Source: Candidatus Methylomirabilota bacterium (lineage in GTDB: Bacteria; Methylomirabilota; Methylomirabilia; Rokubacteriales; CSP1-6). Taken from it: 64,000 nucleotides of DNA. Numbering within the stretch: the stretch's first letter is position 1; each line of letters begins with the position of its first letter. The notes under the pieces were generated by a model, which did not search any database, was not told the DNA's origin, and was given only the letters and a program-made list of their open reading frames with translations. The stretch lies in assembly GCA_036506275.1 (NCBI GenBank), contig DASXSB010000014.1:2402-66401 (forward strand), given 5' to 3'. Below, piece by piece: positions 1-38,798 of this stretch. The position numbers and the translations under genes are program-made.

Positions 1-1
1 C

Positions 2-100
2 ATGCGGGACGGCGTCATCGAGTTGGAGGAACCGCGTGGCGTCGTCGGCTACGTGGATGTTCCGTTCCGTGAGTGGCGCAGCAATCTGCCGTTTGCCTGA
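2..100 (+). CDS. 3' end of a gene cut by the window edge. The tail (..VDVPFREWRSNLPFA) resembles the segment just before the catalytic Cys pair of organomercurial lyase (MerB family). It ends at TGA 98-100, which is in frame with the next ORF.
   Basis: Frame 2 is open from nt 2 to 97. The other frames give Arg-rich shadow translations. The MerB similarity is judged by eye against a recalled sequence only. Confidence 0.45.
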   Translation: MRDGVIELEEPRGVVGYVDVPFREWRSNLPFA

Positions 101-137
101 GCGCGGATGAATCTCTTCCGGTCGGAAGAGCACGCGC
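101..137 (+). other. Two-tier stem-loop directly after the in-frame TGA; bacterial SECIS-like geometry
   Basis: Lower stem gcgcg(101-105)/cgcgc(133-137). Upper perfect stem ctcttcc(113-119)/ggaagag(124-130). Apical loop GGUC(120-123) starts 19 nt after the UGA. Confidence 0.35.
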
Positions 138-340
138 GCCGCTGGTCCGGCTTCAACGCGGAGCACGCGGCGGGACTTCTGACGTTGGCGCAGCTCGCCG
201 GCATCATGAGCACGGCGCTCATGCGGGAGCGATTGAACGGCCACTACGTGTCTTCCGCCGCCGGCTATCGCCGCGAGTTCCTCGATCGGGTGCGGGAGGT
301 GACGGGCGCCGATCCATTCTGGAATCCCGCGGCGCGCTGA
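107..340 (+). CDS. 77-aa ORF (MNLFRSEEHARRW...). Either a small independent protein or the C-terminal continuation of the preceding MerB-like frame.
   Basis: ORF track. Same frame as 2-100, separated only by TGA-GCG-CGG. No Shine-Dalgarno sequence upstream of ATG 107 (gcctgagcgcgg). The FRSEEHARRW motif resembles FFAS..A..W of the MerB C-terminus. Confidence 0.6.
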   Translation: MNLFRSEEHARRWSGFNAEHAAGLLTLAQLAGIMSTALMRERLNGHYVSSAAGYRREFLDRVREVTGADPFWNPAAR

Positions 341-466
341 ACGTCCTTCGCGCCGACGCGGCGTGACGCCGGCGCGGCCGCGCGCGTTGCCGCTTCCGAT
401 GTAGGCACTACGTCGTACCTGCTGCCCTCGCAGAGGCGTCCCGCGTTACCATCGTCCCCATTCCCG

Positions 467-3400
467 ATGACGGGAACGTGTCCCGCGTCATCGGGTGCTG
501 GAGGTTTCGCTATGGCCGGATCGCCGCCAGATCCGCCGCGGTCCTGGGCTCGCCGGCTCCGGAGCACCGTCACGAGGGGGCCGTTCCTCCTCGCCGTCGC
601 GGGGGTGGTCGTGCTCGTCGTCGCGTACGCGCTGGTCGGCTTCTTCCTGGTGCCGCGGCTGATCAGGACGCACGGGCCGCGGTTCGCCGAACAGCAGCTC
701 CAGCGGCGGGCGGAGATCGGTGAGGTACGGTGGAATCCGTTCCTGTTCAAGCTCGAGATCAAGCACTTCCGGCTGCAGGAGCGCGACGGGCGGCCGCTCC
801 TCGCCTTCGATCGCCTCTTCGTCGATTTCGAAGTGACGAGCCTCTTCCGCCGCGCGTGGACCTTCGCCGAGATCCAGCTCGACGCGCCCCGCGTCGACGC
901 CGTCCTCGGTGCCGATGGTCGATTGAACGTGGCCGATCTGCTGGAGTCCTTTCCCAAGCGGAAGGGACCGCCGACGTCGGACCCCCCGCGGATGCTCGTG
1001 CAGCACACCGTGGTCCGCGACGGCATCGTGACCTTCACCGATCATTCGCGCCGCGCGTCCCAGACGGTGACGATGGAGCCGATCAACGTCGAGCTGCACG
1101 ACGTCACGACGGTGCGCGAGCGCCGTGGCCCCTACACGATCACGGCCAGGGTGGCGGGCGCCGCCCTGGGCTGGGAGGGCGAGGTGTCGCTCGTCCCCGT
1201 GGCATCGCGCGGGCGCTTCGACGTTCGGGGCTTTCCGCTGGCGACGGCGTGGCGCTTCGTCCAGGAGCAAATCGCGCTGGCGGAGCCGGGCGGCCGGGTC
1301 GACGCGAGCGTGCGGTACCGGTTCGGCTACCAGGATGGCGCGACGTCACTGAACGTGGAGAACCTCGAGGCGTCGATGACCGGAGTCGTCCTCGCGCATC
1401 GGGACGACAAGGCGGCGCTGGCGACCCTGGAACGAATCCGGGTGACGGGGGCATCGGGCGATCTCATCTCGCGCGAGCTGACGGTGCCGGAGATCTCGGT
1501 GAGCGGGGGCCGGGTCGCGGCCACGATGGCGCCGGACGGTACGGTGAACTGGCAAACGATCGTGATCCCACCGCCGCCGTCCACCGCGCCCGCGCCGACT
1601 GCCGCGCCCCCGCCGTTGGTCGGAGCGGCCGCGCCCGGGGCGGGCCCGCCGTCGGCCGTCGTGCCCGCGTCTCGCGAATCACGCCCGTGGCGGGTCGCGG
1701 TGGGAAGCGTGCGCGTCGCGGACGTCGCCCTTTCCGTCGTCGATCGAAGTCGCGTCAAACCGGTCGCCGTCGACGTGGCCGGCCTGAAACTCGGGTTCTC
1801 CGCGCGGCTCGAGGCGGGAGGGCCGGAGCTGGCGGGCATGGTGGAGGGCATCGGTCTCACGCTCGAGCGCGTGGCGATGCGCGAGGCCGCCGCGCCCGCG
1901 CCCGTGGCCACGCTCGATCAGATCGCGGTGAGCGGTGGCCGCGTCGATCTCGGCGCTCGTCACGTCGCGCTGGAGCGACTCGTCGCCACGGGCGGGGCGG
2001 CGACGGTGGTCCGTGATGCGGACGGCTCCGTCCCCCTTGTGACGATGCTGGAACCCGGCGAGAAGCAGAAGCACGCCCGCGACCAGTCGACGCGCCCGCA
2101 AGCGTCGCCGCCGCCGGCGGCCAGGCCGTGGACGGTGGCGCTGGCGCACGGCGAGCTCGCCAATCATCGCGCCGCCTTCAGCGATCGCACCGTCACTCCT
2201 CCCGTCCAGATCGACGTCGGCGAGATGAAGGCGAGCGTGCGCGACCTCCGCCTGGACGGAAAGAAGCCGTGGCCCTTCGAGACCAGCTTTCGCATCGCCC
2301 AGGGAGGGCGCTTCGCGGCGAAGGGGAACGTGGCGCCGGACGGACGTGCGATCGATGCAACCGTGACCCTGACGCAGTTCGCGATCGCGCCTGCGCAGCC
2401 GTATGTCGCCCAGCACGCCGCCGTCGTGCTCCGGTCCGGCGACGTGTCGACGACGGGACGATTCACGTACCGCGCCGGAGGCGACCGCCCCGCGATCACG
2501 TTCACCGGATCCACCGACGTGGATCGCCTGCTCGTGGTGGAGGCAACCAGCGCCGATCCCGTGGTGTCGTGGAAATCGCTGCACGCGGAGACGGTGCGCT
2601 TCGGCCTCACCCCCGACCGGCTGGAGATTGACGAGGTCCGGGTGGCGGAGCTCGACGGCGAGGTCATCATCTATCGAGACAAGACCATCAACGTCGCGCG
2701 GTTGATGAAGCCGCCGGAGGCGCCGTCGGCTTCGCCCGCCCCGAGCGCGCTGCCGCGCGCGGCCCCCGCCGAGCGCGAGACCCGTCCGATCTTTCCCGTG
2801 ACCATCGGTCGTGTGCGGCTCGACGCGGGGTCCATGCACTTCGCCGATCTGAGCCTCGTTCTTCCGTTCGAGACCCGCATGCACTCGCTGAACGGGGTCG
2901 TGGCCGGTCTCGGGTCGGACACCAACAGCCGCGCCACCGTCAAGCTCGACGGCCAGGTGGACGAGTTCGGATCGGTCAAGGTGGAGGGCGCCCTCAGCGC
3001 GTTTCAGCCCAAGGAGTTCGCCGACATCGCGGTGACGTTCCGCAACGTCGCGATGTCCACGCTGTCGCCCTACAGCGCCACCTTCGCGGGGCGGCGCATC
3101 GCAACGGGAACGATGGACATCGATCTCCAGTACAAGCTCGACCACGGCGCGCTCGTGGGCGAGAACAGGGTCGTGCTCCGGGAGCTGCGGCTCGGCGAAC
3201 GCGTGGAGAGCCCGGGCGCCATGCGGCTGCCGCTCGACCTCGCCATCGCGATCCTGAGCGACTCCGACGGACGCATCGACCTCGAGCTTCCGGTGCGTGG
3301 CAGCGTCGATCACCCCGAGTTCAGCTACGGTCACCTGATCTGGCAGGCGCTGACCACCGTGATCACCAAGGTGGTGACGTCGCCGTTCAAAGCGCTCGGC

Positions 3401-4051
3401 GCGCTCTTCGGCGGCGACTCTCAGACCGTGGAGGCGATCACGTTCGAGGCCGGGAGCGCCGTCGTGCCGCCGCCCGAGCGACAGAAGCTCAAGCGCGTCG
3501 CCGACGTGCTCGCCAAGCGCCCGCGGCTCACGCTCACGGTCCATGGGACGTATGAAGCGAAGATGGACAGCGAGGCTCTGCGGTCGTTCCAGGTCCGCCA
3601 GGATCTCGCCGAGCGGCTGGGCGTGAAGGTGAAGCCAGGCGAGGATCCCGGTCCGGTGGCGTTCGACGACGCCAAGACCCAGCGCGCGCTGGAGGCATTG
3701 CTGACCGAGCGCGCGGGTGACAAAGCGGTCGCCGAGATGTTGCAGGAGCACGAGAAGAGCACGGGAAAGAAACCTGAACGCGCCAACCGGTTGCGGGGGG
3801 TGGTGGGCCGCGCCAGCGGGGATCGCGCGCTCTACGAGGCGATGTTCAAGCGTCTGGTGGAGACGGCGCCGCTCGCGGAAGCGGAGCTGACGGACCTCGC
3901 CAAGCGCCGCGGTGAAGCGGCCGTGCGCGCGCTCCAGGACGGCGCCGCCGCGGCCGGGGAGCGCGCGCACGTGGGTGAGACCGAGATCGCGAAGAGCGCC
4001 GAGCGGAGCGGGGTTCCCACCCGTCTGGAGCTCGGCGCCGCTGGCTCCTGA
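467..4051 (+). CDS. DUF748 domain protein (AsmA-like superfamily), N-terminal membrane anchor, 1194 aa
   Basis: N-terminal TM segment (FLLAVAGVVVLVVAYALVGFFLV) followed by repeated beta-rich modules typical of DUF748/AsmA-like proteins. An alternative start at ATG 512 is possible. Confidence 0.8.
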   Translation: MTGTCPASSGAGGFAMAGSPPDPPRSWARRLRSTVTRGPFLLAVAGVVVLVVAYALVGFFLVPRLIRTHGPRFAEQQLQRRAEIGEVRWNPFLFKLEIKHFRLQERDGRPLLAFDRLFVDFEVTSLFRRAWTFAEIQLDAPRVDAVLGADGRLNVADLLESFPKRKGPPTSDPPRMLVQHTVVRDGIVTFTDHSRRASQTVTMEPINVELHDVTTVRERRGPYTITARVAGAALGWEGEVSLVPVASRGRFDVRGFPLATAWRFVQEQIALAEPGGRVDASVRYRFGYQDGATSLNVENLEASMTGVVLAHRDDKAALATLERIRVTGASGDLISRELTVPEISVSGGRVAATMAPDGTVNWQTIVIPPPPSTAPAPTAAPPPLVGAAAPGAGPPSAVVPASRESRPWRVAVGSVRVADVALSVVDRSRVKPVAVDVAGLKLGFSARLEAGGPELAGMVEGIGLTLERVAMREAAAPAPVATLDQIAVSGGRVDLGARHVALERLVATGGAATVVRDADGSVPLVTMLEPGEKQKHARDQSTRPQASPPPAARPWTVALAHGELANHRAAFSDRTVTPPVQIDVGEMKASVRDLRLDGKKPWPFETSFRIAQGGRFAAKGNVAPDGRAIDATVTLTQFAIAPAQPYVAQHAAVVLRSGDVSTTGRFTYRAGGDRPAITFTGSTDVDRLLVVEATSADPVVSWKSLHAETVRFGLTPDRLEIDEVRVAELDGEVIIYRDKTINVARLMKPPEAPSASPAPSALPRAAPAERETRPIFPVTIGRVRLDAGSMHFADLSLVLPFETRMHSLNGVVAGLGSDTNSRATVKLDGQVDEFGSVKVEGALSAFQPKEFADIAVTFRNVAMSTLSPYSATFAGRRIATGTMDIDLQYKLDHGALVGENRVVLRELRLGERVESPGAMRLPLDLAIAILSDSDGRIDLELPVRGSVDHPEFSYGHLIWQALTTVITKVVTSPFKALGALFGGDSQTVEAITFEAGSAVVPPPERQKLKRVADVLAKRPRLTLTVHGTYEAKMDSEALRSFQVRQDLAERLGVKVKPGEDPGPVAFDDAKTQRALEALLTERAGDKAVAEMLQEHEKSTGKKPERANRLRGVVGRASGDRALYEAMFKRLVETAPLAEAELTDLAKRRGEAAVRALQDGAAAAGERAHVGETEIAKSAERSGVPTRLELGAAGS

Positions 4052-4059
4052 GGTTCAGC

Positions 4060-7000
4060 TCAGCCGTCGAGCTCCGCGAGCAGCCGGCGCGCCGTCTGCA
4101 AGTCGGGCGTCTCCAATCCCTCCGTGAACCACTCGTACACGGGCGCCAGCGTCCGGCGGGCGGCCTCACGCTTGTTCTCTCGCTGCCACAGTCGCGCCAG
4201 GCTCGTGGCGGCGCGCAGCTCCAGCGACTTTTGGCTCCGGCCACGTGCGAGATCGACGGCAGTGATGAGGAGACGCTCGGCCTCCGCGGTGGTGTTATCG
4301 GCGCTCCGGAGCAGCAGCTCCGCCTCCAGTCGATAGACCTCGGGTCCGAACGATGCCTGTCGCGTCGTCTCGTCGATTTCGGCGAGCAAGCGTCGTCCCT
4401 CATCCGGATCACCCGCTTCCACGTAGAGCTCGGCGAGGACGCAAAGGACGAATACCCGACGCCACGACGCCGCCTCCACCTGCACATATCGGTGGAGACC
4501 GGCGAGCGCCTCGCGCCCCGGCCGCTCACCGCGGACGACGGGAAGCAGCACGCGCGCCGAATCCATCCAGGTTCCGAAGCCATGCTCGTGCCCGAGAGCG
4601 AACTGCCGCTCGATCGTGGGCCCGAGCGCGGTCCGGTCACCGCGCAGGTACTGCACGCAGCCGATGATCCAGAGCGCGATCATCGTCGTGAGCGGATGCT
4701 TCAGGTCGTCGACGAAGCGCAAGGCATCACGCGCCGTCGCGGACGCGCGATCGGGGTATCCGAGAAGCCACTGCGCGAGCGAGAGCTGGTAGCGGCAGCA
4801 GGCGCCGGCGTTGTGGTTGCCGTAGAGGAATGTCTGCGCGGCGTGACGCGCCGGATCGTAGAGCGCCATGCCGCGCTCCATGTGGGGCACCGCGACGAGC
4901 GGATTCCCACTCCCGAGCAGCGTCGCCCACACCGCGTGATGCGCCTCCAGGATACGTCCGGAGTCGCCGCCCGCCTCCGCGTCCTCCAGCAAGCGGGTCC
5001 CCGCCTCGAGGGCAGTCGCATACTCCCCGCGCGTGTACCTCACGTACCACGCGCCCCACAGCGCGGGGAATCGACGTGAGGTGTCCTCGAGGACGACGAC
5101 GGTATCGAGAGCGGTCTGGTAGAGGGCATCGACCTCCGGCGACGAGGCGCCCTTGAGGGCGATGAGCGCCGGGCCCATCGCGATCCGGATATCGAGGCCC
5201 TGGGACACGGCGGCGGGTGACGGCGGCAACGTGGACAGCGCGCCGAGGGCAGACTCGAAGTGCTCCAGGGCTTCCCGGTTCGCGGAGCGGGCGAGCGCCT
5301 TCTTTCCCGCCTCGAAGAGGTAATGAACCGCCTTCGCCGTCACCCCGCCCCGCACGGCGTGGTGAGCGAGCAGCTCCACGCGCTCGGATACACGACCGTC
5401 GTCCAGCCGCTCGATGGCCTCGACGATGGCGGCGTGCAGCGCGCGCCGGCGGTCGTGGAGCACGCTGCCGTAGGCGACCTCGTGCGTGAGCGCGTGCTTG
5501 AACGTGTACTCGAGATCCGGAAAGAGACGCATCTCGTAGAGGAACTCGGCCGTCTGTAGCTCGGTGAGCGCTTCCCGCACGTCGCTCCCGCTCATGTCCA
5601 CGATGGCCTCCAGCACCGCCACCGGGACGTCCTTGCCGATCACAGCCGCCGCCTGCAGCAGTCGCTTGCGCTCCGACGGCAGGCGGTCGATGCGGGCGGC
5701 TAGAATGGCCTGGACGGTGCCCGGGATCTCGATGGCCGTGACCGGATTCAGGAGGCGATAGGCGCCGGGGTCGCCCACGAGCGCGCGCGTCTCCACGAGC
5801 GCGCGCACGCTCTCTTCGAGGAAGAGCGGATTGCCCTCGGTGCGCTCGATGAGAAGCCGCGCGAGTGGGCGCACGCTGGCGTCGGTGCCGAGCAGCGTGG
5901 CGAGCAGCTCGTCGGCGCTCGTGGGGGGCAGGGGATCGATGCGAAGCTGCTGGTAGTACGTCTTGCCGCCCCAGCCGTGACGGTACTCCGGGCGATAGTT
6001 CACGGCGAGGAGCACGGCGGTGGTCGGCAATCCGTCCACGAGGCGATCCAGGACTTCTTGGGTCTCCGCATCGATCCAGTGCAGGTCCTCGAAGACGAGC
6101 AGCACCGGTTGCACCTGGCTCTCGCGCAATAGCACGCGCTTCACGCTCTCGATGGCGCGGCGCCGTCGCTGGGCCGCGTCGAGGTGCAGATAGGCGTCGT
6201 TCGGCTCGAGGGCGTCGAACAGCCACGTGAGGGCGGGCACGGCATCCTCGAGGGCGCGGTCGAGCGTCAAGAGGCCGCCCGTGATCTTCGCGCGCACGGT
6301 GCGGGCGTCGTCGCGCTCGTCGATGCGCAGATAGCGGCGCAGCAGATCGACGACGGGCAGGAATGGCGTCGCCTTGCCGTACGAAACCGAGCTCGCCTCG
6401 AGGACGAGCCAGCCGCTCGTCCGGTGCGAGTGGATGAACTCGTAGAACAAACGCGATTTCCCCACCCCGGGCTCGCCGACCACGGCCACGATCTGCCCGC
6501 GTCCGCGCGCGGCGTGCTCGGCCGCCTGTCGGATGCGGTCGATCTCCGCGTCGCGACCGACGAAGGGCGAGAACCCCCGCGCGCGCGCCGCCTCCAGCCG
6601 CGTGCGCGCGGCCGCCGTCCCCGTCAGCTCGAAGACGGGCACCGGTTCCGGAAGGCCCTTGACCGCGATCGGGCCGAGCGGCTTCACGCGGACGAAACCT
6701 TCCGCGAGGGCCAGCGTGTCCGGCGTGATGAGAACCGTGCCGGGGTCCGCGAGCTGCTCCATGCGCGCCGCCAGGTGCGTCGTCTGACCGACGGCGGTGT
6801 AGTCCATGTGGAGGTCGTTGCCGATGGCGCGCACGACGACCTCGCCGGAATTGAGACCGACCCGGATGCGTAACGTGACGCCGTGGTCGCGACGGACTCC
6901 TTCCGCGTACCGCTTCACCGATTCCTGCATCCGCAACGCCGCATAGCACGCGCGCACGGCGTGGTCTTCGTGAGCGAGCGGAGCTCCGAACAGGGCCATG

Positions 7001-7425
7001 ATGCCGTCGCCCATGACCTGGTTCACGGTGCCGTCGAAGCGATGGACGGCCTCCATCATCTGCTCGAGCACGGGATCGAGGAGCTTCCGCGCGGTTTCGG
7101 GGTCGCGGTCGGCGACGACCTCCATCGAGCCTCTGAGGTCCGCGAAGAGAACGGTGACCTGCTTGCGCTCACCCTCGATGGCGGCCTTCGACGTGAGGAT
7201 GCGCTCGGCCAGGTACTTGGGCGTGTAGGAGTCGGGGGCCCCGAAGCGCGATACCGCGGGCGGCGTCTCGGGCCGGCCGGCGGGATGCGCACACTCGGGG
7301 CAGAACTTCGCGGTGGCCGACAGCGGATGGCCGCAGTGCGCGCACACGCGCGCGAGGGGGGCCGCGCATTCCTCGCAGAACTTCGCGCCGGCCTCGTTCG
7401 CGTGCTGGCAGCGGGCACACTTCAT
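4060..7425 (-). CDS. Multidomain signalling protein: double zinc ribbon + class III adenylate/guanylate cyclase + AAA/STAND ATPase + TPR
   Basis: MKCARCQHAN..FCEECAA..CAHCGHP..FCPEC (zinc ribbons); VTVLFADLRGS (cyclase); VVGEPGVGKSRL (P-loop); TPR-like helical C-terminus. Confidence 0.9.
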   Translation of the reverse strand: MKCARCQHANEAGAKFCEECAAPLARVCAHCGHPLSATAKFCPECAHPAGRPETPPAVSRFGAPDSYTPKYLAERILTSKAAIEGERKQVTVLFADLRGSMEVVADRDPETARKLLDPVLEQMMEAVHRFDGTVNQVMGDGIMALFGAPLAHEDHAVRACYAALRMQESVKRYAEGVRRDHGVTLRIRVGLNSGEVVVRAIGNDLHMDYTAVGQTTHLAARMEQLADPGTVLITPDTLALAEGFVRVKPLGPIAVKGLPEPVPVFELTGTAAARTRLEAARARGFSPFVGRDAEIDRIRQAAEHAARGRGQIVAVVGEPGVGKSRLFYEFIHSHRTSGWLVLEASSVSYGKATPFLPVVDLLRRYLRIDERDDARTVRAKITGGLLTLDRALEDAVPALTWLFDALEPNDAYLHLDAAQRRRRAIESVKRVLLRESQVQPVLLVFEDLHWIDAETQEVLDRLVDGLPTTAVLLAVNYRPEYRHGWGGKTYYQQLRIDPLPPTSADELLATLLGTDASVRPLARLLIERTEGNPLFLEESVRALVETRALVGDPGAYRLLNPVTAIEIPGTVQAILAARIDRLPSERKRLLQAAAVIGKDVPVAVLEAIVDMSGSDVREALTELQTAEFLYEMRLFPDLEYTFKHALTHEVAYGSVLHDRRRALHAAIVEAIERLDDGRVSERVELLAHHAVRGGVTAKAVHYLFEAGKKALARSANREALEHFESALGALSTLPPSPAAVSQGLDIRIAMGPALIALKGASSPEVDALYQTALDTVVVLEDTSRRFPALWGAWYVRYTRGEYATALEAGTRLLEDAEAGGDSGRILEAHHAVWATLLGSGNPLVAVPHMERGMALYDPARHAAQTFLYGNHNAGACCRYQLSLAQWLLGYPDRASATARDALRFVDDLKHPLTTMIALWIIGCVQYLRGDRTALGPTIERQFALGHEHGFGTWMDSARVLLPVVRGERPGREALAGLHRYVQVEAASWRRVFVLCVLAELYVEAGDPDEGRRLLAEIDETTRQASFGPEVYRLEAELLLRSADNTTAEAERLLITAVDLARGRSQKSLELRAATSLARLWQRENKREAARRTLAPVYEWFTEGLETPDLQTARRLLAELDG

Positions 7426-7486: not shown

Positions 7487-7828
7487 TCAGGCGCGCGCGT
7501 TGACCACGCCCTCGATCACGGCCCGTGGTGCGGCACCGATGACGCGGTCCACGGTCGTCCCGTCCTTCAGGAAGAGAATCGTCGGAATGGAGCGGATCTC
7601 GTACCGGCTCGCGAGGCCCGGGTTCTCGTCGATGTTGACCTTCATCAGCGTCACCCGACCTTCCGAGGCCTCGGCCACGGCGTCGAGGACGGGGGCAATG
7701 GCCTGGCACGGGCCACACCACGCCGCCCAGAAGTCCACCATCACGAGCCCTTCGGCCGCGACCAGTGCCTCGTCGAAGTTCTGCTCGGTCAGATGGATCG
7801 CCTCCGCCACCTTCTGCTCTCGCGTCAT
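7487..7828 (-). CDS. trxA: Thioredoxin
   Basis: 113 aa with the WAAWCGPCQ active site and a typical thioredoxin length. Confidence 0.95.
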   Translation of the reverse strand: MTREQKVAEAIHLTEQNFDEALVAAEGLVMVDFWAAWCGPCQAIAPVLDAVAEASEGRVTLMKVNIDENPGLASRYEIRSIPTILFLKDGTTVDRVIGAAPRAVIEGVVNARA

Positions 7829-9231: not shown

Positions 9232-11529
9232 TCACCCCGCCACTCCCGCACCACCGGCGTACGCCTTCAGCGCCTTCAGGACTTTCGGCGGCGACATCGG
9301 CAGCTCGGTGAAACGGATGCCCGTCGCGTTCTCCATGGCATTGGCGATGGCGCCGAGCGGCGGCACGATGGGCGTCTCGCCCACTCCACGCACGCCGTAC
9401 GGATGCCGCGGGTTCGCGACCTCCACCAGGATGGCGTCGATCATGGGCACGTCGGACGCCACCGGCATCCGGTAGTCGAGGAAGCCGGCGTTCTGGAGCT
9501 TGCCGTCGCTGCCGTAGATGTACTCCTCGTTCAGCGCCCACCCGATGCCCTGCACGGCGCCGCCCTGGAACTGGCCCTCCACGTACGCCGGGTGAAGCGC
9601 GCGCCCGGCGTCCTGGGCGACGGTGTAGCGCAGGATCGTGACGCGCCCGGTCTCGGGATCGACCTCGAGGTCGACCAGGTGCGTGCCGAGGCTCGGACCC
9701 GCGCCCTGGGCGTTGATGCGGCCGTAGCCGCCGATGGGCCCGCCCGTCTTGCCCGCCACCTTCGCGAAATCCGCGATCGACATCGGCTTCACCTTCTCCG
9801 CGAGGGCGCCGAGCGGGCGCACGAGGCCGCTCGCGAACTCGACCTGATCCGGCTTGGCGTCCCACAGCTTGCAGGCGCGCGCGCACAGCTCCTGCTTGAT
9901 CTGCTTGGCGGCCTCCACGATGGCCATCGAGCCCGAGAAGGCGGAGCGGCTGCCGCCGGTGAGGAAGTTGAATCCGAGCGAGCCCGTGTCGCCGATGATC
10001 GGACGCACCTTGTCGTAGGGGATGCCGAGCTCGTCGGCGGCGACCATGGAAAGCGATGCGCGCAGCCCGCCGATGTCCGGCGTGCCCGCCATCAGCGACA
10101 CCGTGCCGTCCTCGTTGATCGTGAGCGACGCGCACGTCTCGCCGCCGATGTTGAACCAGAAGCCGGAGGCGACGCCGCGCCCCTGCCACTTCCGGAGCGG
10201 CGTGTTCCAGTGCTCGGTCTTCTTGATGGAGTTGAGCGTCTCCTCGAGGCCGATGGGACCGAACTTTGGCCCGTAGGCCGCCTTCGTCCCTTCCCGCGCC
10301 GCGTTCATCATGCGCAGCTCGATGGGATCGAGCCCGAGCTTCTTGGCGATCTCGTCCACGACGCTCTCGACCGCGAACTCCGAGATCGGCGCCCCCGGCG
10401 CGCGATACGCCGCCACCTTGGGCCGGTTGGAGACGACGTCGTAGCCGATGACCTTCACGTTCTCGATGTCGTAGGGGGCATACGCGCACATCACGCCGGG
10501 CTGGACGGGCGAGCCCTGGAAGGCGCCCGCCTGGTACTTGAGCTCGGCGAAGGCGGCCACGAACTTGCCGTCCTTGGTGGCGCCCATCTTGACTCGCACG
10601 GTGGCGCCCGAGGTAGGACCGGAGGCCTTGAACACCTCCTCGCGCGACATCACCATCTTCACCGGGCGCTTGGCCTTGCGCGAGAGCGCGATGGCGAGCG
10701 GTTCCAGGTAGACGACGGTCTTGCCGCCGAAGCCGCCGCCGATCTCGGAGGCGGTGACGCGGATCTTGCCGATGTCGAGGCCGAGGAGGCGCGCGCAGTG
10801 CGCGCGCACGATGAAGTGGCCCTGGGTCGTGCACCAGAGCTCGGTGGACCCGTCCTCGGAGACGCTCGCGAGCGCCGCGTGCGGCTCGATGTAGCCCTGA
10901 TGGACCGGCTGCGTCTTGAACTCGCGCTCGACGATGACGTCGGCCTTCGCGAACCCGGCCTCGACGTCGCCGAGGCCGATCTCCACGCGCTTGGCGACGT
11001 TGGACGGTTTCTCCGGCTTCGGCTCCACGCCCGCCGTGAAGAGGTCCTCGTGGAGGAGGGGCGCGTCGGGGCGCATGGCTTCCACGACGTCGATCACGTG
11101 CGGCAGCACCTCGTAGGTCACGTCGATGAGCTTGAGGGCGCGGCGGGCGATGGCGGTGCTGGTGGCGGCGACGGCGGCCACGGCGTGGCCCTCGTAGAGC
11201 GCTTTCTCGCGGGCCATGACGTTCCGCACCACGTCCTTGTAGTTCATCATCATCTCGCCGGCGGGGATGAACTCGGAGGGCTGGTCGCCGAAGTCGTCAC
11301 GCGTGACGACGGCCTTCACGCCGGGGAGCGCCTCCGCCTTCGACGTGTCGATCGAAACGATGCGAGCGTGGGGATGCGGGCTGCGCAGCACGCGACCGTG
11401 GAGCTGCCCGGGCAGATTGAAGTCGGCGCCGAAGCGCGCGCGGCCCGTCACCTTGTCCACCCCGTCCGGCCGGATGGTGCGCGTTCCGACGTACGTCTGC
11501 CCGTGCCCGTTCGTCTGCGTCTCGGCCAT
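9232..11529 (-). CDS. Xanthine dehydrogenase/aldehyde oxidase-family molybdopterin-binding large subunit (CoxL-like)
   Basis: Start at ATG 11529 (MAETQTNGHG..); 765 aa. IRPDGVDKVTGRARFGADF and VAAYRAPGAP motifs. The track ORF is extended upstream through coxS in another frame. Confidence 0.92.
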   Translation of the reverse strand: MAETQTNGHGQTYVGTRTIRPDGVDKVTGRARFGADFNLPGQLHGRVLRSPHPHARIVSIDTSKAEALPGVKAVVTRDDFGDQPSEFIPAGEMMMNYKDVVRNVMAREKALYEGHAVAAVAATSTAIARRALKLIDVTYEVLPHVIDVVEAMRPDAPLLHEDLFTAGVEPKPEKPSNVAKRVEIGLGDVEAGFAKADVIVEREFKTQPVHQGYIEPHAALASVSEDGSTELWCTTQGHFIVRAHCARLLGLDIGKIRVTASEIGGGFGGKTVVYLEPLAIALSRKAKRPVKMVMSREEVFKASGPTSGATVRVKMGATKDGKFVAAFAELKYQAGAFQGSPVQPGVMCAYAPYDIENVKVIGYDVVSNRPKVAAYRAPGAPISEFAVESVVDEIAKKLGLDPIELRMMNAAREGTKAAYGPKFGPIGLEETLNSIKKTEHWNTPLRKWQGRGVASGFWFNIGGETCASLTINEDGTVSLMAGTPDIGGLRASLSMVAADELGIPYDKVRPIIGDTGSLGFNFLTGGSRSAFSGSMAIVEAAKQIKQELCARACKLWDAKPDQVEFASGLVRPLGALAEKVKPMSIADFAKVAGKTGGPIGGYGRINAQGAGPSLGTHLVDLEVDPETGRVTILRYTVAQDAGRALHPAYVEGQFQGGAVQGIGWALNEEYIYGSDGKLQNAGFLDYRMPVASDVPMIDAILVEVANPRHPYGVRGVGETPIVPPLGAIANAMENATGIRFTELPMSPPKVLKALKAYAGGAGVAG

Positions 11530-11531
11530 GG

Positions 11532-12008
11532 CTATCCCTTTCTCAGCGTCGCGGCGGCGTCCTGCACCGCGGTCACGATCTTGTCGTAGCCCGTGCATCG
11601 GCACAGGTTGCCGGCCAGCCAGTAGCGGATCTCCGTCTCCGACGGCTCCGGGTTCTTCTCGAGGAGCGCCTTCGAGGCGACCAGGAAGCCGGGCGTGCAG
11701 ATCCCGCACTGGAGAGCGGCGTGCTCGAGGAATTTCTGCTGCAAGGGATGGAGCGCGTCGCCGGGCGCCATGCCCTCGATCGTCTCGATGCGGAGCCCCC
11801 CGACCTCGCAGCCCAGCACGAGGCACGCGCACACGAGGCGGCCGTCGAGCATCACGCTGCACGCTCCGCAGTCGCCGGAGGCGCAGCCCTCCTTGCTGCC
11901 GGTCAGCTGGAGCGTGTCGCGGAGCACGTCGAGGAGCGTGTCCTCCGTCTCGCAGAGGAACTCCACGGCGTCCCCGTTCACCGTCGCTTCGATGTGGTGC
12001 TTGGCCAT
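11532..12008 (-). CDS. (2Fe-2S)-binding small subunit of the Mo hydroxylase (CoxS-like)
   Basis: CASGDCGACSV and CGICTPG..CRCTGY cluster motifs. Its ATG overlaps the coxM-like stop (ATGA). Confidence 0.95.
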   Translation of the reverse strand: MAKHHIEATVNGDAVEFLCETEDTLLDVLRDTLQLTGSKEGCASGDCGACSVMLDGRLVCACLVLGCEVGGLRIETIEGMAPGDALHPLQQKFLEHAALQCGICTPGFLVASKALLEKNPEPSETEIRYWLAGNLCRCTGYDKIVTAVQDAAATLRKG

Positions 12009-31371: not shown

Positions 31372-32685
31372 TCAGCGCGTCTCCGCCTTCTCCTGATCCG
31401 CCACGCGCGTGCCGTCCTTGACGCCGTCGGGCGCGTTGATCACGAGCCGCTCCGCCCCCGTGAGGCCGGCCACCACTTCGACGGATTGCCCGAGATCGCG
31501 GCCCAGCTCCACCTTCCGGTAGTGCACGGTGTGATCGTCCCCCACGCTCAGGACCTGGGTTCCCGACGCGCGGGTGATGAGGGCGGTGGCGGGCACCAGC
31601 CACACGGCGTCGGCGGGGGCCACGCTGAACTTCACCTGCGCGTACATTCCCGGCAGGAGCGCGTGGTCCTCGTTGCGCAGTCGCACCTCGGTGAGCAACG
31701 TCCGCGACGTGGGATCGAGAGCGCCCGCCGTGCTCGCGATCTTCCCCACGAAGGTGCGCTGCGGGTATTCCGGCGCGAGGACGCGCGCCTCCTGCCCGGG
31801 CGCGATCGAGCGCACGAACGTCTGGGGAACGCTCACGAAGATGCGGAGGTTCTCGACGCGGGCGATCCGGAACAGCGGGCCGTTGGCGGTGGCGCTGCCG
31901 GCGGTGATGAGGGCACCGCGGTCGATGCCGCGGGCGGTGATGATTCCCGCGAACGGCGCTTCCACCTTCTGGAACGACTGGAGCGCCATGAGCCGCTGTA
32001 CGTTGGCCTCGTTGGCGGCTACGTTGGCGGCGGCGGCGCCGACGCTCGCCTCGAGGGCGCCGATGTTGGCCTGCATGGCGTCGACGTTGGCCTGGGCGGC
32101 GGCCGTCGCCGCCCGCGCGGAGGCGAAGCCGGCGCGCTTTTCGTCCGCATCCTGATGGGCAACGAGCTCTCGGCGCTCGAGCTCGGTGAAGCGAGTCGAG
32201 GTGGCGCCCGCGAATCCTTCGTTCGCTTTCGACTGCTCGAGCGTGGCCCGCGCCTGTTGCAGCGTGGCCCGCGCCTGCGTCAGGCCCGCCTGGCTCTGCG
32301 CGAGAGCGGCGCGCGTCTGGGCGAGAGCGGCCCGCGCCTGGCCGAGCTCCTGGTCGAGCTCCGGCGTATCGATCTGGGCGAGGACCTTGCCGGCGGGCAC
32401 GCGGTCGCCGATGTCGACGTAGCGCTCGCGCACGTAGCCGTTCGTGCGGGCGTAGATGGCGGTCTCCTCGATCGCCTGGATGCTGCTCGGGAGGACGAGG
32501 TCGGTGGGACCGTCGGCGCGACGCGGATGCACCACCGTCACCGACGGCAGTCCGGAGTCGGGCGCCGTCGCCGCCGCCACCAGCTCCGCGTCCTGTCGCA
32601 GGCGCGGGAGCACGCCGATGGCGAGCACGATCACGAGGAGCACCACGCCGAGGAGCGCGACCCACGTCTTTCGAAATCCACGCAT
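31372..32685 (-). CDS. Efflux RND transporter periplasmic adaptor subunit (HlyD/MFP family)
   Basis: Start at ATG 32685 (RBS aaggag). Membrane anchor, coiled-coil QELGQARAALAQ.., lipoyl and beta-barrel segments. Confidence 0.9.
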   Translation of the reverse strand: MRGFRKTWVALLGVVLLVIVLAIGVLPRLRQDAELVAAATAPDSGLPSVTVVHPRRADGPTDLVLPSSIQAIEETAIYARTNGYVRERYVDIGDRVPAGKVLAQIDTPELDQELGQARAALAQTRAALAQSQAGLTQARATLQQARATLEQSKANEGFAGATSTRFTELERRELVAHQDADEKRAGFASARAATAAAQANVDAMQANIGALEASVGAAAANVAANEANVQRLMALQSFQKVEAPFAGIITARGIDRGALITAGSATANGPLFRIARVENLRIFVSVPQTFVRSIAPGQEARVLAPEYPQRTFVGKIASTAGALDPTSRTLLTEVRLRNEDHALLPGMYAQVKFSVAPADAVWLVPATALITRASGTQVLSVGDDHTVHYRKVELGRDLGQSVEVVAGLTGAERLVINAPDGVKDGTRVADQEKAETR

Positions 32686-32703
32686 GACCAAGGCTCCTTG
32701 CCG

Positions 32704-35700
32704 TCAGCTCTCGCCGAGGAAGTCCTCGCGGGGAGGACGGCGGCGAAGCAGGCTGTAGACGACGGGCACCAGGAACAACGTCGCGAACGTCGCCACGGAA
32801 AGACCGCCGATGACGGCGCGACCGAGGGGCGCGTTCTGCTCTCCGCCTTCGCCGAGCCCGAGCGACATCGGGAGCATGCCGATGATCATGGCGAGGGCGG
32901 TCATCAGCACCGGACGCAAGCGCGTGGCGCCGGCGGCGAGGGCGGCCTCGCGAGCGTCGCCGCTCTCCCGCATCCGGCCGTTCGCGAAGGACACCATGAG
33001 GATGCTGTTGGCGGTGGCCACGCCCACGCTCATGATGGCGCCCATGAGGGCCGGCACGCTGAACGTGGTGTGCGTCACGAAGAGCATCCAGACGATGCCG
33101 CAGAAGCCGGCCGGCAGCGCCGTGATGATGATGAACGGATCGAGCCACGACTGGAAGTTCACGACCATGAGCAGGTAGACGAGCACGACCGCGAAGATGA
33201 GCCCCAGGCCGAGGCGGAGGAAGGCGGAGTTCATGCTTTCCACCTGACCTCGCACGGCGATGGTGTGGCCGGGCGGAAGCTCTCGCCGCGCATCGGCCAC
33301 GATGCGCTGGACGGCCGCCGCCACGCTGCCGAGGTCACGATCCTGGACGTTGGCGTAGATGTCGAAGACGGGTTGCACGTTGGAATGACTGATGACGGCG
33401 GGTGTCTCCCGCCGCTCCAGCGTGGCCAGGTTGCTGAGGAGCTGCTGGCGGCCGGCGGTGCTCTGGGTGATCGACGTGTTCATGAGGGTGTTGACGGAAT
33501 CGATCCGGTCCGGCGGCGTCTGCACGACCACCGGGTACGTGATCCCGGTGCGGGGATCGGACCAGTAATTCGGCGCCACCACCGCGCTCGAGCTCAGGGA
33601 GACGAGCACGTTGTTGGCGACGTCGCGCTGGGTGAGACCGAGTTCCGCCGCGCGCGAGCGGTCGACGTTCACGAGCAGCGAGGGCGTGTTGACGACCTGA
33701 TGCAGGTGCACGTCGACGGCGCCCGGGATCCGGGCCATGCGCGCCGCCACGTCGAGGGCCACGTCGTGCGTCGCCTTCTGGTTGTAGCCGGTGACCTGGA
33801 CGTCGATGGGGGCCGGTAGCCCGAAGTTCAGGATCTGGCTCACCATGTCGGCGGGCTGGAAGAAGAAGGTGACGCCCGGAAACTCGCGCGGGAGCCGCTC
33901 GCGGAGGATCTTCATCCACCGCGCCGTCGGCTGGTGACGTTCCGGGTTCAGGGAGACGAGGATCTCGCCGTCCGACGGCCCCAGCGTCACGCTGTCGGTG
34001 AAGCCGAGGTTCACCGGCTGCGGCTGCCCGATGTTGTCGAGCACGAGCGCGATTTCGTCCTTGGGGATGATGCGACGGATGGCACCCTCGACGTCGGCGA
34101 ACACCTGCTCCGTCTCCTCGATCCGGGTACCGGCGGGCGCCCGCACGTGCAGGCGGAACTGCCCGGTGTCCACCGTGGGAAAGAAGTCGCGTCCCACGAA
34201 CGGCAGGAGCCCGAGCCCGCTCGCGACGATCAGGCCGAAGACGAGGAAGACACGCGCGCGTCTGCCGAGAGCCGCTTCCAGGAGCGTGACGTAAGCGGCC
34301 CGTAGTCGCTCGAACCCCCGGTTGAAGGCGTCGTGAACGCGACCGAACACGCCCCTGGCCGTCGGCTCCGCCGTGTGTCCCCCCGCCTCGTACGCGAGGA
34401 GATAGCGGACGAGGGTGGGGATGATCGTCCGCGACAGGAGATACGAGGCCAGCATCGCGAACACGACGGCCATCCCGAGCGGCGTGAACAGGTACTTCGC
34501 GGGACCGACGAGAAACACCACCGGCACGAAGACGATGCAGATGGAGAGCGTCGAGACGAACGCCGGCGTCGCGATCTCAGCGGCGCCGTCGAGGATCGCC
34601 TGGACGAGTCGCTTACCGAGGCCGAGATTCCGGTGGATGTTCTCGATCTCCACGGTGGCGTCGTCGACGAGGATGCCCACGGCAAGGGCCAGGCCTCCGA
34701 GCGTCATCACGTTGAGCGTCTCGCCGAGTCCGCTCAGGATCGTCACCGACGTGAGGATCGAGAGCGGGATGGAGACGATCACGATGAGGGTGCTGCGCCA
34801 GCTCCCGAGGAAGAGCAGGATCATGAGGCCGGTGAGGGCGGCCGCGATCGCTCCCTCCGTCAGCACGCCCGCGATGGCCGCCCGCACGAAGAGCGACTGA
34901 TCGAAGAGCTCCTTGATCTCGAGTCCGGGGGGAGCGGCCGCCCGCAGCGTGGGCAGCAGCTCCTTGAGCTGCTTGACGATCGTCAGCGTGGAGGCGCCGC
35001 CCTTCTTGATGACGGTGAGGAGGGCCGACCGCCGGCCGTCGAGCCGCACCATGTTCGTCTGCACCGCGAAGCCGTCGCGGACGTGGGCGACGTCGCGCAC
35101 GTAGACGGTGGCGCCGTTGACCTGCTTCACGGGCAGGTCGTTGAGGGCGGCCAGCACGTCCGGGCTGCTGTTGAGGCTCACCCGGTACTCTCGCGGTCCC
35201 AGCTTCACGCTCCCCGAGGGCAGGGTCAGGTTCTGGAGGTTGACGGCGCCGCTCACGTCCGCCGCCGAGATCGTCTTCGCGAGAAGCGCCTGTGGATCGA
35301 GATCCACCATGACCTGTCGCGGCTTGCCGCCGTAGGGGAGCGGCAGCGTGATGCCCTGGATGGGCGCGATCTGCTGCCGGATGCGGTAGATGCCGTAATC
35401 GTAGAGCTCCGCCTCGGACAACGTCTTCCCGCCGAGGGCGAGCTGAATGATCGGCACGCTCGACGCGTTGTAGCGCACGATGAACGGCGGCACCGCCCCC
35501 GGCGGCATCACGCGCAGGATCGTCTGCGACACCGCCGTCACCTGGGCGAGAGCCGCTTCGATGTTCACGTTGGGCTGGAAATAGATCTTGATGACGCTCA
35601 CGCCGGGATAGGTCTGCGACTCGATCGTGCGTACGTCGCTCACCACGGACGAGATCGTGTACTCGGAGTAGGTGGTGATGCGGGATGCCATCTCCTCCGT

Positions 35701-35865
35701 GGAGAGGCCGCCGTAGTTCCAGATGACGGAGACGACGGGGATGTCGATCTCGGGGAAGATGTCGGTCGGGGTCGTCACGATCGCGAAGACGCCGAGCAGT
35801 ACGATCGCGAGGCCCATCACCACGAAGGTGTAGGGACGACGAAGCGCGAGCCGAACGATCCACAT
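32704..35865 (-). CDS. Efflux RND transporter permease (AcrB/HAE1-like), 1053 aa
   Basis: MWIVRLALRRPYTFVVMGLAIVLLG..DIFPEIDIPVVSV and a 12-TM architecture. No outer-membrane factor gene is adjacent. Confidence 0.95.
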   Translation of the reverse strand: MWIVRLALRRPYTFVVMGLAIVLLGVFAIVTTPTDIFPEIDIPVVSVIWNYGGLSTEEMASRITTYSEYTISSVVSDVRTIESQTYPGVSVIKIYFQPNVNIEAALAQVTAVSQTILRVMPPGAVPPFIVRYNASSVPIIQLALGGKTLSEAELYDYGIYRIRQQIAPIQGITLPLPYGGKPRQVMVDLDPQALLAKTISAADVSGAVNLQNLTLPSGSVKLGPREYRVSLNSSPDVLAALNDLPVKQVNGATVYVRDVAHVRDGFAVQTNMVRLDGRRSALLTVIKKGGASTLTIVKQLKELLPTLRAAAPPGLEIKELFDQSLFVRAAIAGVLTEGAIAAALTGLMILLFLGSWRSTLIVIVSIPLSILTSVTILSGLGETLNVMTLGGLALAVGILVDDATVEIENIHRNLGLGKRLVQAILDGAAEIATPAFVSTLSICIVFVPVVFLVGPAKYLFTPLGMAVVFAMLASYLLSRTIIPTLVRYLLAYEAGGHTAEPTARGVFGRVHDAFNRGFERLRAAYVTLLEAALGRRARVFLVFGLIVASGLGLLPFVGRDFFPTVDTGQFRLHVRAPAGTRIEETEQVFADVEGAIRRIIPKDEIALVLDNIGQPQPVNLGFTDSVTLGPSDGEILVSLNPERHQPTARWMKILRERLPREFPGVTFFFQPADMVSQILNFGLPAPIDVQVTGYNQKATHDVALDVAARMARIPGAVDVHLHQVVNTPSLLVNVDRSRAAELGLTQRDVANNVLVSLSSSAVVAPNYWSDPRTGITYPVVVQTPPDRIDSVNTLMNTSITQSTAGRQQLLSNLATLERRETPAVISHSNVQPVFDIYANVQDRDLGSVAAAVQRIVADARRELPPGHTIAVRGQVESMNSAFLRLGLGLIFAVVLVYLLMVVNFQSWLDPFIIITALPAGFCGIVWMLFVTHTTFSVPALMGAIMSVGVATANSILMVSFANGRMRESGDAREAALAAGATRLRPVLMTALAMIIGMLPMSLGLGEGGEQNAPLGRAVIGGLSVATFATLFLVPVVYSLLRRRPPREDFLGES

Positions 35866-37847: not shown

Positions 37848-38798
37848 ATGAGCCAGCCATCGGTCCTTCTGCTCCTGGTCGGGGTTCCGCCCACGCCGTC
37901 GAGCCTGCGCGTGCGCGTGTGGCGCCGCCTCCGTTCGCTGGGCGCGGTGGCCCTCAAGCGGTCCGCCTATCTCCTCCCCGACACTCCCGAGCTCTACGAG
38001 GATTTCCAGTGGCTTGCCCAGGAGATCCAGCGGGAAGGGGGGGACGCCACGCTCGTCCGCGTCCATCAGATCGAGAACCTGACCGACGCCGACGTGCTCC
38101 GTCTCTTCCAGGAGCCCCGCGACCAGGACTACCGGCACCTCGCGGCGCGCTATCGCAAGATGCTGCAGGGCCTCGAGCGCAAGGGGGCGGCGACGCGGAC
38201 ACGAGTGCAAGACGACCTCGCCCGGCTCGCCAAGGACCATCAGCGTATCCGTGACATCGACTTCTTCGACGCCCCCGGCGGCGCCGAAGTGCGGCGTCTC
38301 GAGGAGGCCATCGCCATGCGCACCCGGCGCCCGGAATCCGTCCGTCGCGAAGAGCGGCCCACCCTCGATCTCGCCGCCCTGCGCCGTCGGCGGTGGGTCA
38401 CCCGCCCGCGCCCGCACATCGATCGCATCGCCTCCGCGTGGCTGATCAAGCGCTTCATCGACGCCGATGCCCAGTTCGTGTTCGCGCCGGCGTCGGAGTT
38501 CCCGAAGGACGCCATCCCGTTCGACGCGCCGGGGGTGGAGCTCAGTCACCAGGGTGAGGACTGCACGTTCGAGACGCTCCTGAAACGCGCGCGGCTGCGC
38601 GATCGACGACTCGCCCGCCTCGCCGAGATCGTCCACGAGGCCGACCTCCGCGACGGCAAGTACCCGCGCGAGGAAGCCCGCGGTATCGACGTCGCCGTGC
38701 GCGCGCTGCTCGCCGCGTCCACCGACGACCACCAGGTGCTCGCCCAGGGCATGACCCTGTTCGACGGTCTTTACGCCACGACGTCACGGAAGGGTTAG
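37848..38798 (+). CDS. chrB: Chromate resistance regulator-like protein ChrB (N-terminal ChrB domain + C-terminal Chrome_Resist domain)
   Basis: 316 aa; ..LRVRVWRRLRSLGAVALKRSAYLLP.. and ..WVTRPRPHIDRIASAWLIKRFIDADAQFVF.. are typical ChrB motifs. Confidence 0.88.
   Translation: MSQPSVLLLLVGVPPTPSSLRVRVWRRLRSLGAVALKRSAYLLPDTPELYEDFQWLAQEIQREGGDATLVRVHQIENLTDADVLRLFQEPRDQDYRHLAARYRKMLQGLERKGAATRTRVQDDLARLAKDHQRIRDIDFFDAPGGAEVRRLEEAIAMRTRRPESVRREERPTLDLAALRRRRWVTRPRPHIDRIASAWLIKRFIDADAQFVFAPASEFPKDAIPFDAPGVELSHQGEDCTFETLLKRARLRDRRLARLAEIVHEADLRDGKYPREEARGIDVAVRALLAASTDDHQVLAQGMTLFDGLYATTSRKG

Follow-up and report, generated by a model that had tools for sequence, protein, structure and literature searches.

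A stand-alone MerB-like gene with an in-frame UGA and a conserved downstream hairpin in a Rokubacteriales genome: a probable selenoprotein outside the SaoL family

Why should a reading frame that resembles the organomercurial lyase MerB be interrupted by a single UGA at the position of a catalytic cysteine and remain open beyond it? This question is raised by the first 340 nucleotides (nt) of the window, by which we mean the whole 64,000-nt stretch of DNA analyzed here (contig DASXSB010000014.1, positions 2,402 to 66,401 of the forward strand, from a Candidatus Methylomirabilota bacterium of the Rokubacteriales). Frame 2 of the window is open from nt 2 to the stop codon at 338-340, with the TGA at 98-100 as its sole interruption. 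Its translation reads MRDGVIELEEPRGVVGYVDVPFREWRSNLPFA, then the TGA, then ARMNLFRSEEHARRW, and continues to ...NPAAR and the terminal stop; the stretch around the TGA, with ..VDVPFREWRSNLPFA on its near side and ARMNLFRSEEHARRW.. on its far side, was checked and is correct. Two codons past the TGA, and in the same frame, an ATG (107-109) opens an open reading frame (ORF) of 77 amino acids (aa) that is not preceded by a Shine-Dalgarno sequence. In all these respects the sequence is as described in the initial annotation, which proposed a candidate selenoprotein. Our answer to the question is that nt 2-340 very probably form the 3′ portion of a single gene of 232 codons that encodes a MerB-fold enzyme and whose UGA at 98-100 is decoded as selenocysteine (Sec; U153).

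The gene is cut by the edge of the window, and its upstream part was recovered from an identical contig. This contig, L001, is a 2.9-kb metagenome sequence that is 100% identical to the window over the 400 bases that the two share (window 1-400), likewise encodes the 77-aa product, and continues upstream of the window edge. Read through the TGA, the gene comprises 232 codons from a GTG start that aligns with the starts of its orthologs; codons 121-232, the last 112, are carried by the window, and codons 1-120 were taken from L001. The parts of the gene that lie in the window are the following.

2..97, plus strand: codons 121-152 of the MerB-like gene, which is truncated here by the edge of the window and was traced through identity with L001
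98..100, plus strand: in-frame UGA, the putative Sec codon U153, placed by ortholog conservation and by the MerB Cys159 column
101..337, plus strand: codons 154-232, encoding the C-terminal region of this protein and called as a separate 77-aa ORF from the ATG at 107
338..340, plus strand: true stop codon (TGA), from the reading of the frame
113..130, plus strand: core hairpin with a 7-bp stem (CUCUUCC/GGAAGAG) and the loop GGUC at 120-123, encoded by Leu-Phe-Arg-Ser-Glu-Glu codons; putative SelB-binding selenocysteine insertion sequence (SECIS) element
101..139, plus strand: extended lower helix of the window organism, with GCGCG/CGCGC and UG/CA pairs and AAU 110-112 bulged

With U read as Cys, the full-length protein matches the Pfam MerB family (PF03243) at 62.9 bits, against a cutoff of 27, over aa 70-184 and across the TGA; the 112-aa fragment in the window alone scores 20.3 bits, below that cutoff, with a match that also spans the TGA. 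A profile built from the family finds MerB2 (PDB 5C17) with an E value of 4e-29 and MerB (1S6L/3F0P) with an E value of 1.4e-14. In the HMMER alignments, the TGA column coincides with Cys159 of MerB and with the active-site Cys of MerB2, in agreement with the by-eye alignment that had first placed the UGA on a catalytic Cys, and the segment YAQ-C-GF-E is aligned to Cys96 and Asp99 of MerB. The MerB triad Cys96/Asp99/Cys159 is aligned with Cys88/Glu91/Sec153, two of the three residues being substituted, and the sequence would place this set in the same chemistry class as the MerB triad. The MNLFRSEEH..W motif, which is invariant and lies within codons 154-232, corresponds to a motif of MerB. 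The homology extends to the fold: an AlphaFold model of the family member P0125, which is 49% identical (predicted local distance difference test score, 96.2; predicted template modeling score, 0.90), gave 11 significant matches in the PDB, all of them MerB or MerB2 chains (E values down to 2.5e-9). In the protein, a region resembling a winged helix at the N terminus is combined with a MerB catalytic domain. A CxxC motif encoded upstream of the window (C-L-D-C, Cys110/Cys113; L001:2352-2363) is invariant in the Sec-containing subfamily; its first Cys falls in about the region of MerB Cys117, and its second varies in distant Cys-type homologs. This pair may act in metal transfer or as a resolving pair, and one may speculate that it accepts the metal product or resolves a selenenyl-sulfide.

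In a scan of one genome per species we found 285 relatives and read the best 80 loci, 79 of which reach the UGA column. Across these loci, from species with 36-54% protein identity, 78 have TGA at the column, none has TAA or TAG, and L076 (L076:5992-5994), with GTA, is the lone exception. The terminal stops of the same 78 genes, by comparison, are spread over TGA (32), TAG (29), and TAA (17), in genomes of 41-73% GC. The reading frame is open and the protein conserved on both sides of the TGA, and the codons downstream of it show the synonymous wobble typical of coding sequence; the gene is continuous across the UGA. The closest species-level genomes are metagenome-assembled genomes (MAGs) of Lambdaproteobacteria and Rokuibacteriota (53-54% identity over the C-terminal part), and close relatives at 80-87% identity have the same architecture. 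The residue before U is A, S, L, T, R, or N in the orthologs and A in the window. No Cys codon was found at the UGA column anywhere in the Sec subfamily. Full-length homologs that are more distant (18-39% identity) have Cys in each of the two catalytic columns; the UGA column is Cys in P0240, P0243, P0244, and 11 more of them, and TGC was verified at this column in the DNA of L091, the closest distant Cys homolog. For P0224, which has Cys at both columns and lies near the Rokubacteria forms, there is no contig on record from which the codon could be checked.

Downstream of the UGA, CTCTTCC (113-119) pairs with GGAAGAG (124-130) around the loop GGTC (120-123), in a hairpin that begins 12 nt, and whose loop begins 19 nt, after the TGA. 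The initial annotation had described a two-tier stem-loop, and its two tiers fared differently. The upper stem is near-invariant in the orthologs, where RNAalifold, applied to 79 sequences, gives a consensus stem of 6-7 bp with a GGUC loop and a single compensatory change (closing pair C-G to A-U in L017). The lower stem exists but is specific to the window organism: GCGCG (101-105) can pair with CGCGC at 133-137, as first described, or at 135-139, the register that RNAfold favors, since the CGCGCGC run permits both, and RNAfold adds the pairs UG 108-109/CA 131-132. The columns of this GC-rich part (RNAalifold columns 4-9 and 36-45) vary and lie outside the consensus; the AUG/CAY pairing of the lower helix recurs in many orthologs.

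Because the hairpin is too invariant for covariation, we replaced covariation analysis by a test of synonymous-codon entropy. Across the 79 loci, the hairpin codons are frozen, with CTC for Leu in 79, and TTC for Phe, CGG for Arg, TCG for Ser, and GAA for Glu in 77 each, and the flanking Asn and His codons wobble at about 50:50. Over 38 conserved degenerate columns, normalized codon entropy is 0-0.19 at five hairpin codons and 0.60 at the sixth, compared to 0.68-1.0 at all 32 columns outside the hairpin, so that the six low-entropy codons are exactly the hairpin. These codons are under constraint at the RNA level. Moreover, the RNA structure travels with the UGA: in distant Cys homologs MNLFRSEEH is relaxed to MHLFCSEDH, MNIFVSKET, INFFPDLEH, and other forms.

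The likeness to the SECIS element of Escherichia coli fdhF, the best-characterized bacterial SECIS element, that had been noted at the outset is borne out. In both cases the hairpin is part of the coding sequence and follows immediately on the UGA, and a short G/C-containing stem carries the apical loop GGUC, which starts 18 nt past the UGA in fdhF (whose sequence was verified in >5,400 genomes) and 19 nt past it in the window; the window upper stem is a perfect 7-bp helix, whereas that of fdhF has a bulged U, and the lower parts differ in sequence. An Rfam scan of the whole window at gathering thresholds found one tRNA-Leu and no SECIS family, a null result that is uninformative because, to our knowledge, bacterial SECIS elements have no general covariance model. 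A published model of bacterial SECIS elements sets four limits: an upper stem of 4-16 bp capped by a loop of 3-9 nt, a G within the first two positions of this loop, a distance of 16-37 nt from UGA to loop, and a minimum free energy of at most −7.5 kcal/mol (PMC13188914, Fig. 2 legend). The window hairpin lies within all four, with its 4-nt loop GGUC on a 7-bp stem, GG at the loop start, 19-nt distance, and minimum free energy of −20.4 to −20.8 kcal/mol.

The column equivalent to MerB Cys96 behaves similarly in most of the family. It is TGA in 57 and TGC in 18 of the 75 orthologs in which it can be read (examples of TGA among L002-L081 are L012:5797-5799 and L062:5788-5790), and the window organism has TGC there (codon 88). 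The second-site TGA is followed by Gly-Phe/Leu-Glu without a start codon, so this site can only be read through. A hairpin of its own, GCUGGC-NGUNN-GCUGGC, is conserved after every one of these TGAs, and no conserved structure follows TGC. Sec and Cys codons interchange within the family, and most of its members are predicted to have two selenocysteines in one active site. Judging by their codons, the doubly Sec members would be chiefly Desulfobacterales, Syntrophales, and Syntrophobacterales, and the Rokubacteria-like members, including that of the window, would be of a Cys...Sec type. We regard it as highly likely that UGA encodes Sec in this gene family.

If the window gene is expressed by the standard bacterial route of Sec insertion, SelB with Sec-tRNA(Sec) would bind the hairpin CUCUUCC-GGUC-GGAAGAG as the ribosome nears the UGA, decoding by SelB would prevail over release factor 2, and translation would proceed through ARMNLFRSEEH... 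to the stop at 338-340, yielding a single 232-residue MerB-fold selenoenzyme. By homology, the reaction would be the protonolysis of a carbon-metal bond, with the proton coming from Glu91, and the fully ionized, soft selenolate of Sec153 together with the thiolate of Cys88 would hold the metal of an organomercurial or of another organometal(loid); where substrate is present only in traces, as in anoxic habitats, a selenolate would be expected to bind it with very high affinity. On this basis we infer actual Sec insertion in the window organism, as well as the catalytic activity and the substrate of its product. Analogy with MerB suggests an organometal lyase with activity on organomercurials, and we would give this assignment a little less than an even chance. 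The gene stands alone, without MerA, MerR, or MerT partners, which suggests a housekeeping or metabolic role and not mercury resistance of the plasmid type.

Several observations weigh against this interpretation, in whole or in part. (i) The hairpin folds with −20.8 kcal/mol compared to −18.1 ± 2.7 kcal/mol for shuffles of this 69% GC sequence (z = −1.0), a stability that 33 of 200 shuffles equaled or surpassed; because single-sequence folding is not significant, the hairpin cannot be judged from the window alone, and its significance rests on the ortholog comparison. (ii) True covariation is limited to the one compensatory change in L017, the hairpin being too invariant for more. (iii) The AUG two codons past the UGA is invariant, as a model of translational restart also predicts. 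(iv) One lineage and one locus depart from UGA, the lineage of P0002, with CGA (Arg), and L076, with GTA. (v) No tRNA-Sec was found in the 64-kb window, nor a SelA, SelB, or SelD domain in a Pfam scan of 20 window ORFs, including all those of matching size. (vi) The proposed function is read from homology only, Asp99 appears as Glu, and there are no mercury genes nearby. (vii) Given the great strength of Hg-Se bonds, letting go of the product poses a chemical problem for a Sec enzyme.

The departing loci have further peculiarities. P0002 (lineage L082-L085) is the sole database protein that continues across the UGA column as Arg, and its CGA is accompanied by ATC in place of the invariant ATG and by a polymorphic extra stop; we considered a functional Arg form and rejected it, judging P0002 to be a decaying copy. 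The upstream halves of L014, L042, L048, and L055 are frameshifted, and these four, together with L076 and L082-L085, look like decaying or mis-assembled copies.

Among the other explanations of the locus, one that is improbable grants that this is a selenoprotein gene by descent and supposes that the organism has no Sec machinery, the gene being an untranslatable relic or a recent transfer. It would account for the lack of sel genes and tRNA-Sec in 64 kb, and the absence of a conserved neighborhood and the patchy occurrence across phyla are compatible with horizontal transfer. However, 64 kb is about 1-2% of a genome, so that the absence of four genes from it says almost nothing, and the window neither supports nor refutes Sec competence. 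The UGA, the hairpin, which is the exact family consensus, and the frame are all intact, and the relatives at 80-87% identity retain the same architecture.

The most serious rival, although decidedly improbable, is a MerB split into two genes, in which the UGA would be a real stop, translation would restart at the AUG 6 nt on, and the hairpin would serve coupling. In its favor, the AUG is found in 79 of 79 loci, the spacing between UGA and AUG is fixed at 6 nt, and gene callers give two ORFs everywhere. However, a real stop would have to be TGA in 78 of 78 species, when the true stops are TAG or TAA in 46 of the 78; the frame is always kept, which a restart does not require; and the restart would have to do without a Shine-Dalgarno sequence. 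The second recoded site, present in 57 orthologs, lacks a start codon and alternates with Cys codons. The Cys homologs, furthermore, are single polypeptides, and a split at this point would sever the MerB fold at a residue of its active site.

A pseudogene, in which a TGC-to-TGA nonsense mutation inactivated a Cys-type MerB-like gene, is hardly credible. One transversion would suffice for the mutation, genomes of high GC content use TGA as a stop more often than any other codon, and some relatives do look decayed (P0002 and the frameshifted L014, L042, L048, and L055), yet the same TGA is found in 78 of 79 diverged species, an independent contig carries an identical copy, and the subfamily has no Cys codon at the UGA column. 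Conservation in frame on both sides and coding-like synonymous wobble downstream likewise show that the 79 codons after the UGA are not neutral. Two genes and a pseudogene were the alternatives offered in the initial annotation, and both fit poorly to TGA in 78 of 79 loci, the kept frame, the Sec/Cys interchange, and the contiguous Cys homologs. An alternative genetic code with UGA as a sense codon (Trp or Gly) has next to no probability, since TGA is the true stop in 32 of 78 genes, including that of the window, the column is aligned to a catalytic Cys and not to Trp or Gly, and the standard code applies in the lineages that carry the gene (Desulfobacterales, Syntrophales, Rokuibacteriota, and others), even though W stands at both UGAs in the database entries P0125, P0132, P0133, P0150, P0173, and P0200.

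Reading the gene as that of a selenoprotein raises the question of whether it belongs to a known family. A MerB-like organometallic lyase selenoprotein, SaoL (NCBIfam NF040728), has a CU motif and about 213 aa and is encoded in the nine-gene SAO locus (saoTECXLBPAD), mostly in Firmicutes (Haft & Gwadz 2022, bioRxiv 10.1101/2022.07.06.499078). SaoL is the sole MerB-like entry in two reviews of prokaryotic selenoproteomes, and in the open-access full-text literature we found no other MerB-like selenoprotein. Like the window family, SaoL has the MerB fold and Sec at the MerB Cys159 column; database entries for either are usually cut short at the UGA, anaerobes (Deltaproteobacteria among them) carry both, and in each a soft metal probably has Se and S as its ligands. 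Yet the window family shows important differences compared to SaoL in that (i) NF040728, with a cutoff of 140 bits, gives the window protein 28.1 bits and three relatives 35.6-43.4 bits; (ii) SaoL has the CU dipeptide, whereas the window protein has A-U and its orthologs never have C before U; (iii) 79 residues follow U in the window protein compared to about 50 in SaoL, and family members have about 232-240 aa compared to about 213; (iv) SaoL lies inside the SAO locus, whereas the window gene and its orthologs have neither an SAO locus nor a conserved neighbor; (v) the Cys96 column holds a predicted second Sec in 57 of 75 window-family orthologs, a feature not reported for SaoL; and (vi) the acid residue is Glu, compared to Asp in SaoL. 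Based on the model cutoff, the lack of a CU motif, and the lack of SAO context, we rejected membership in SaoL. The initial annotation, which considered a Sec-for-Cys MerB-like protein unusual, is thus supported in its candidate, although such a protein is not without precedent: because SaoL exists, the window family is not the first of its kind, and it forms a distinct, stand-alone branch of MerB-like selenoproteins that is apparently undescribed.

Canonical MerB (plasmid R831b, PDB 3F0P/1S6L) and MerB2 (5C17) were compared in the same way. They have in common with the window family the fold (TM scores of 0.58/0.68), an N-terminal helical domain, and the succession of a Cys, an acid three residues on, and a second (seleno)cysteine followed by hhFFxSxxxAxxW. 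In the window family, however, Sec replaces Cys159 and Glu replaces Asp99, identity to MerB is about 20%, and the window protein scores 22.5 bits against a cutoff of 193 (NF009710) and 21.4 against 200 (NF033555) with the NCBIfam MerB equivalogs. In contrast to merB, its gene has no mer operon (merR/T/P/A) nearby and is chromosomal and stand-alone, in uncultured, mostly anaerobic lineages. Membership in canonical MerB was rejected on these equivalog cutoffs, the motif, and the context, and no model in NCBIfam release 20 fits the window protein.

The family is present in databases in disguise. More than 100 entries of about 73-77 aa begin at the equivalent of the ATG at 107, and fragments of about 90, 155, 64, and 75 aa are broken exactly at the two UGAs. 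The six entries with W named above and P0188 are "full-length" and have Trp at both UGA columns; they are evidently contigs translated with a TGA=Trp code, an artifact that hides the selenoprotein. The window gene, like hundreds of its relatives, appears there either as two or three "hypothetical proteins" or in mistranslated form, and surveys of mercury cycling based on merB therefore miss or truncate the family. Its carriers are anaerobic lineages in which methylmercury is made, and methylmercury degradation in these lineages is an acknowledged gap (PMC10114901), a question that a stand-alone gene with a clear active site makes directly testable. As a conjecture that we think unlikely to hold in full, members of the family could be widespread, so far undescribed MerB-fold selenoenzymes distinct from SaoL (in at least 285 species-level genomes), mostly with two Sec residues, each with its own SECIS element, and could be the missing catalyst of a mer-operon-independent degradation of methylmercury or organometal(loid)s in anoxic soils and sediments; merB surveys would have passed over them, their genes being broken into fragments at the UGAs. 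A selenolate, or a pair of them, in the MerB site would be the natural counterpart of the selenium-based MerB mimics made by chemists, and such Se ligands raise the question of how the metal gets released. Finally, the family is a natural experiment on the SECIS element, in which the hairpin freezes six codons where there is a UGA and frees them where there is a Cys.

Some members of the family are unusual in structure or in host. In an Actinomycetota MAG (L068:5992-7074), the frame after the Sec codon runs for 360 codons compared to about 79, which adds a C-terminal extension of about 290 aa. The extension has a GSGKTY motif that resembles a P-loop, and it may reflect a protein fusion or the loss of a stop codon. 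The gene is also found in two archaeal bins, L005 (Bathyarchaeia, 1320-1562) and L040 (Nitrosocosmicus, 2758-3009), with a bacterial-type in-frame hairpin. Archaeal SECIS elements sit in 3′ untranslated regions, and these copies are likely mis-binned bacterial contigs or products of horizontal transfer.

With regard to genomic context, a gene for a response-regulator/metallo-beta-lactamase-fold protein lies upstream on L001, and the downstream neighbors in the window are the following.

467-4051, plus strand: DUF748/AsmA-like protein of 1194 aa (909 bits)
4060-7425, minus strand: zinc-ribbon/adenylate-cyclase/AAA-ATPase protein
7487-7828, minus strand: thioredoxin
9232-11862, minus strand: molybdopterin-binding subunit of the xanthine dehydrogenase family

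None of the window neighbors is conserved next to the orthologs. No mer genes flank the gene in the window, on L001, L086, L089, or L082, or among the clustered neighbors of 78 loci, and the clustering of neighbors at these 78 loci gave no recurrent partner gene, the largest cluster being a response-regulator-type protein at 11 of them. Three other TGA codons in the window each connect two long ORFs of one frame with coding-like GC content at third codon positions; as further Sec sites they were rejected, all of them being ordinary boundaries between adjacent genes.

17681, minus strand: TGA junction at the boundary of a LigD primase-polymerase and a cyclic-nucleotide-binding (cNMP-binding) pyridine-nucleotide-disulfide oxidoreductase
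32704, minus strand: TGA junction at the boundary of HlyD-type and AcrB-type efflux genes
53458, plus strand: TGA junction at the boundary of an unidentified ORF and a branched-chain amino-acid ABC permease

Elsewhere in the window, and at least 30 kb from the MerB-like gene, there are two further genes or gene groups of note, a gene for a ChrB-family chromate-resistance regulator (37848-38798, plus strand) and the HlyD/AcrB-type efflux pair of the resistance-nodulation-division class (31372-35865, minus strand).

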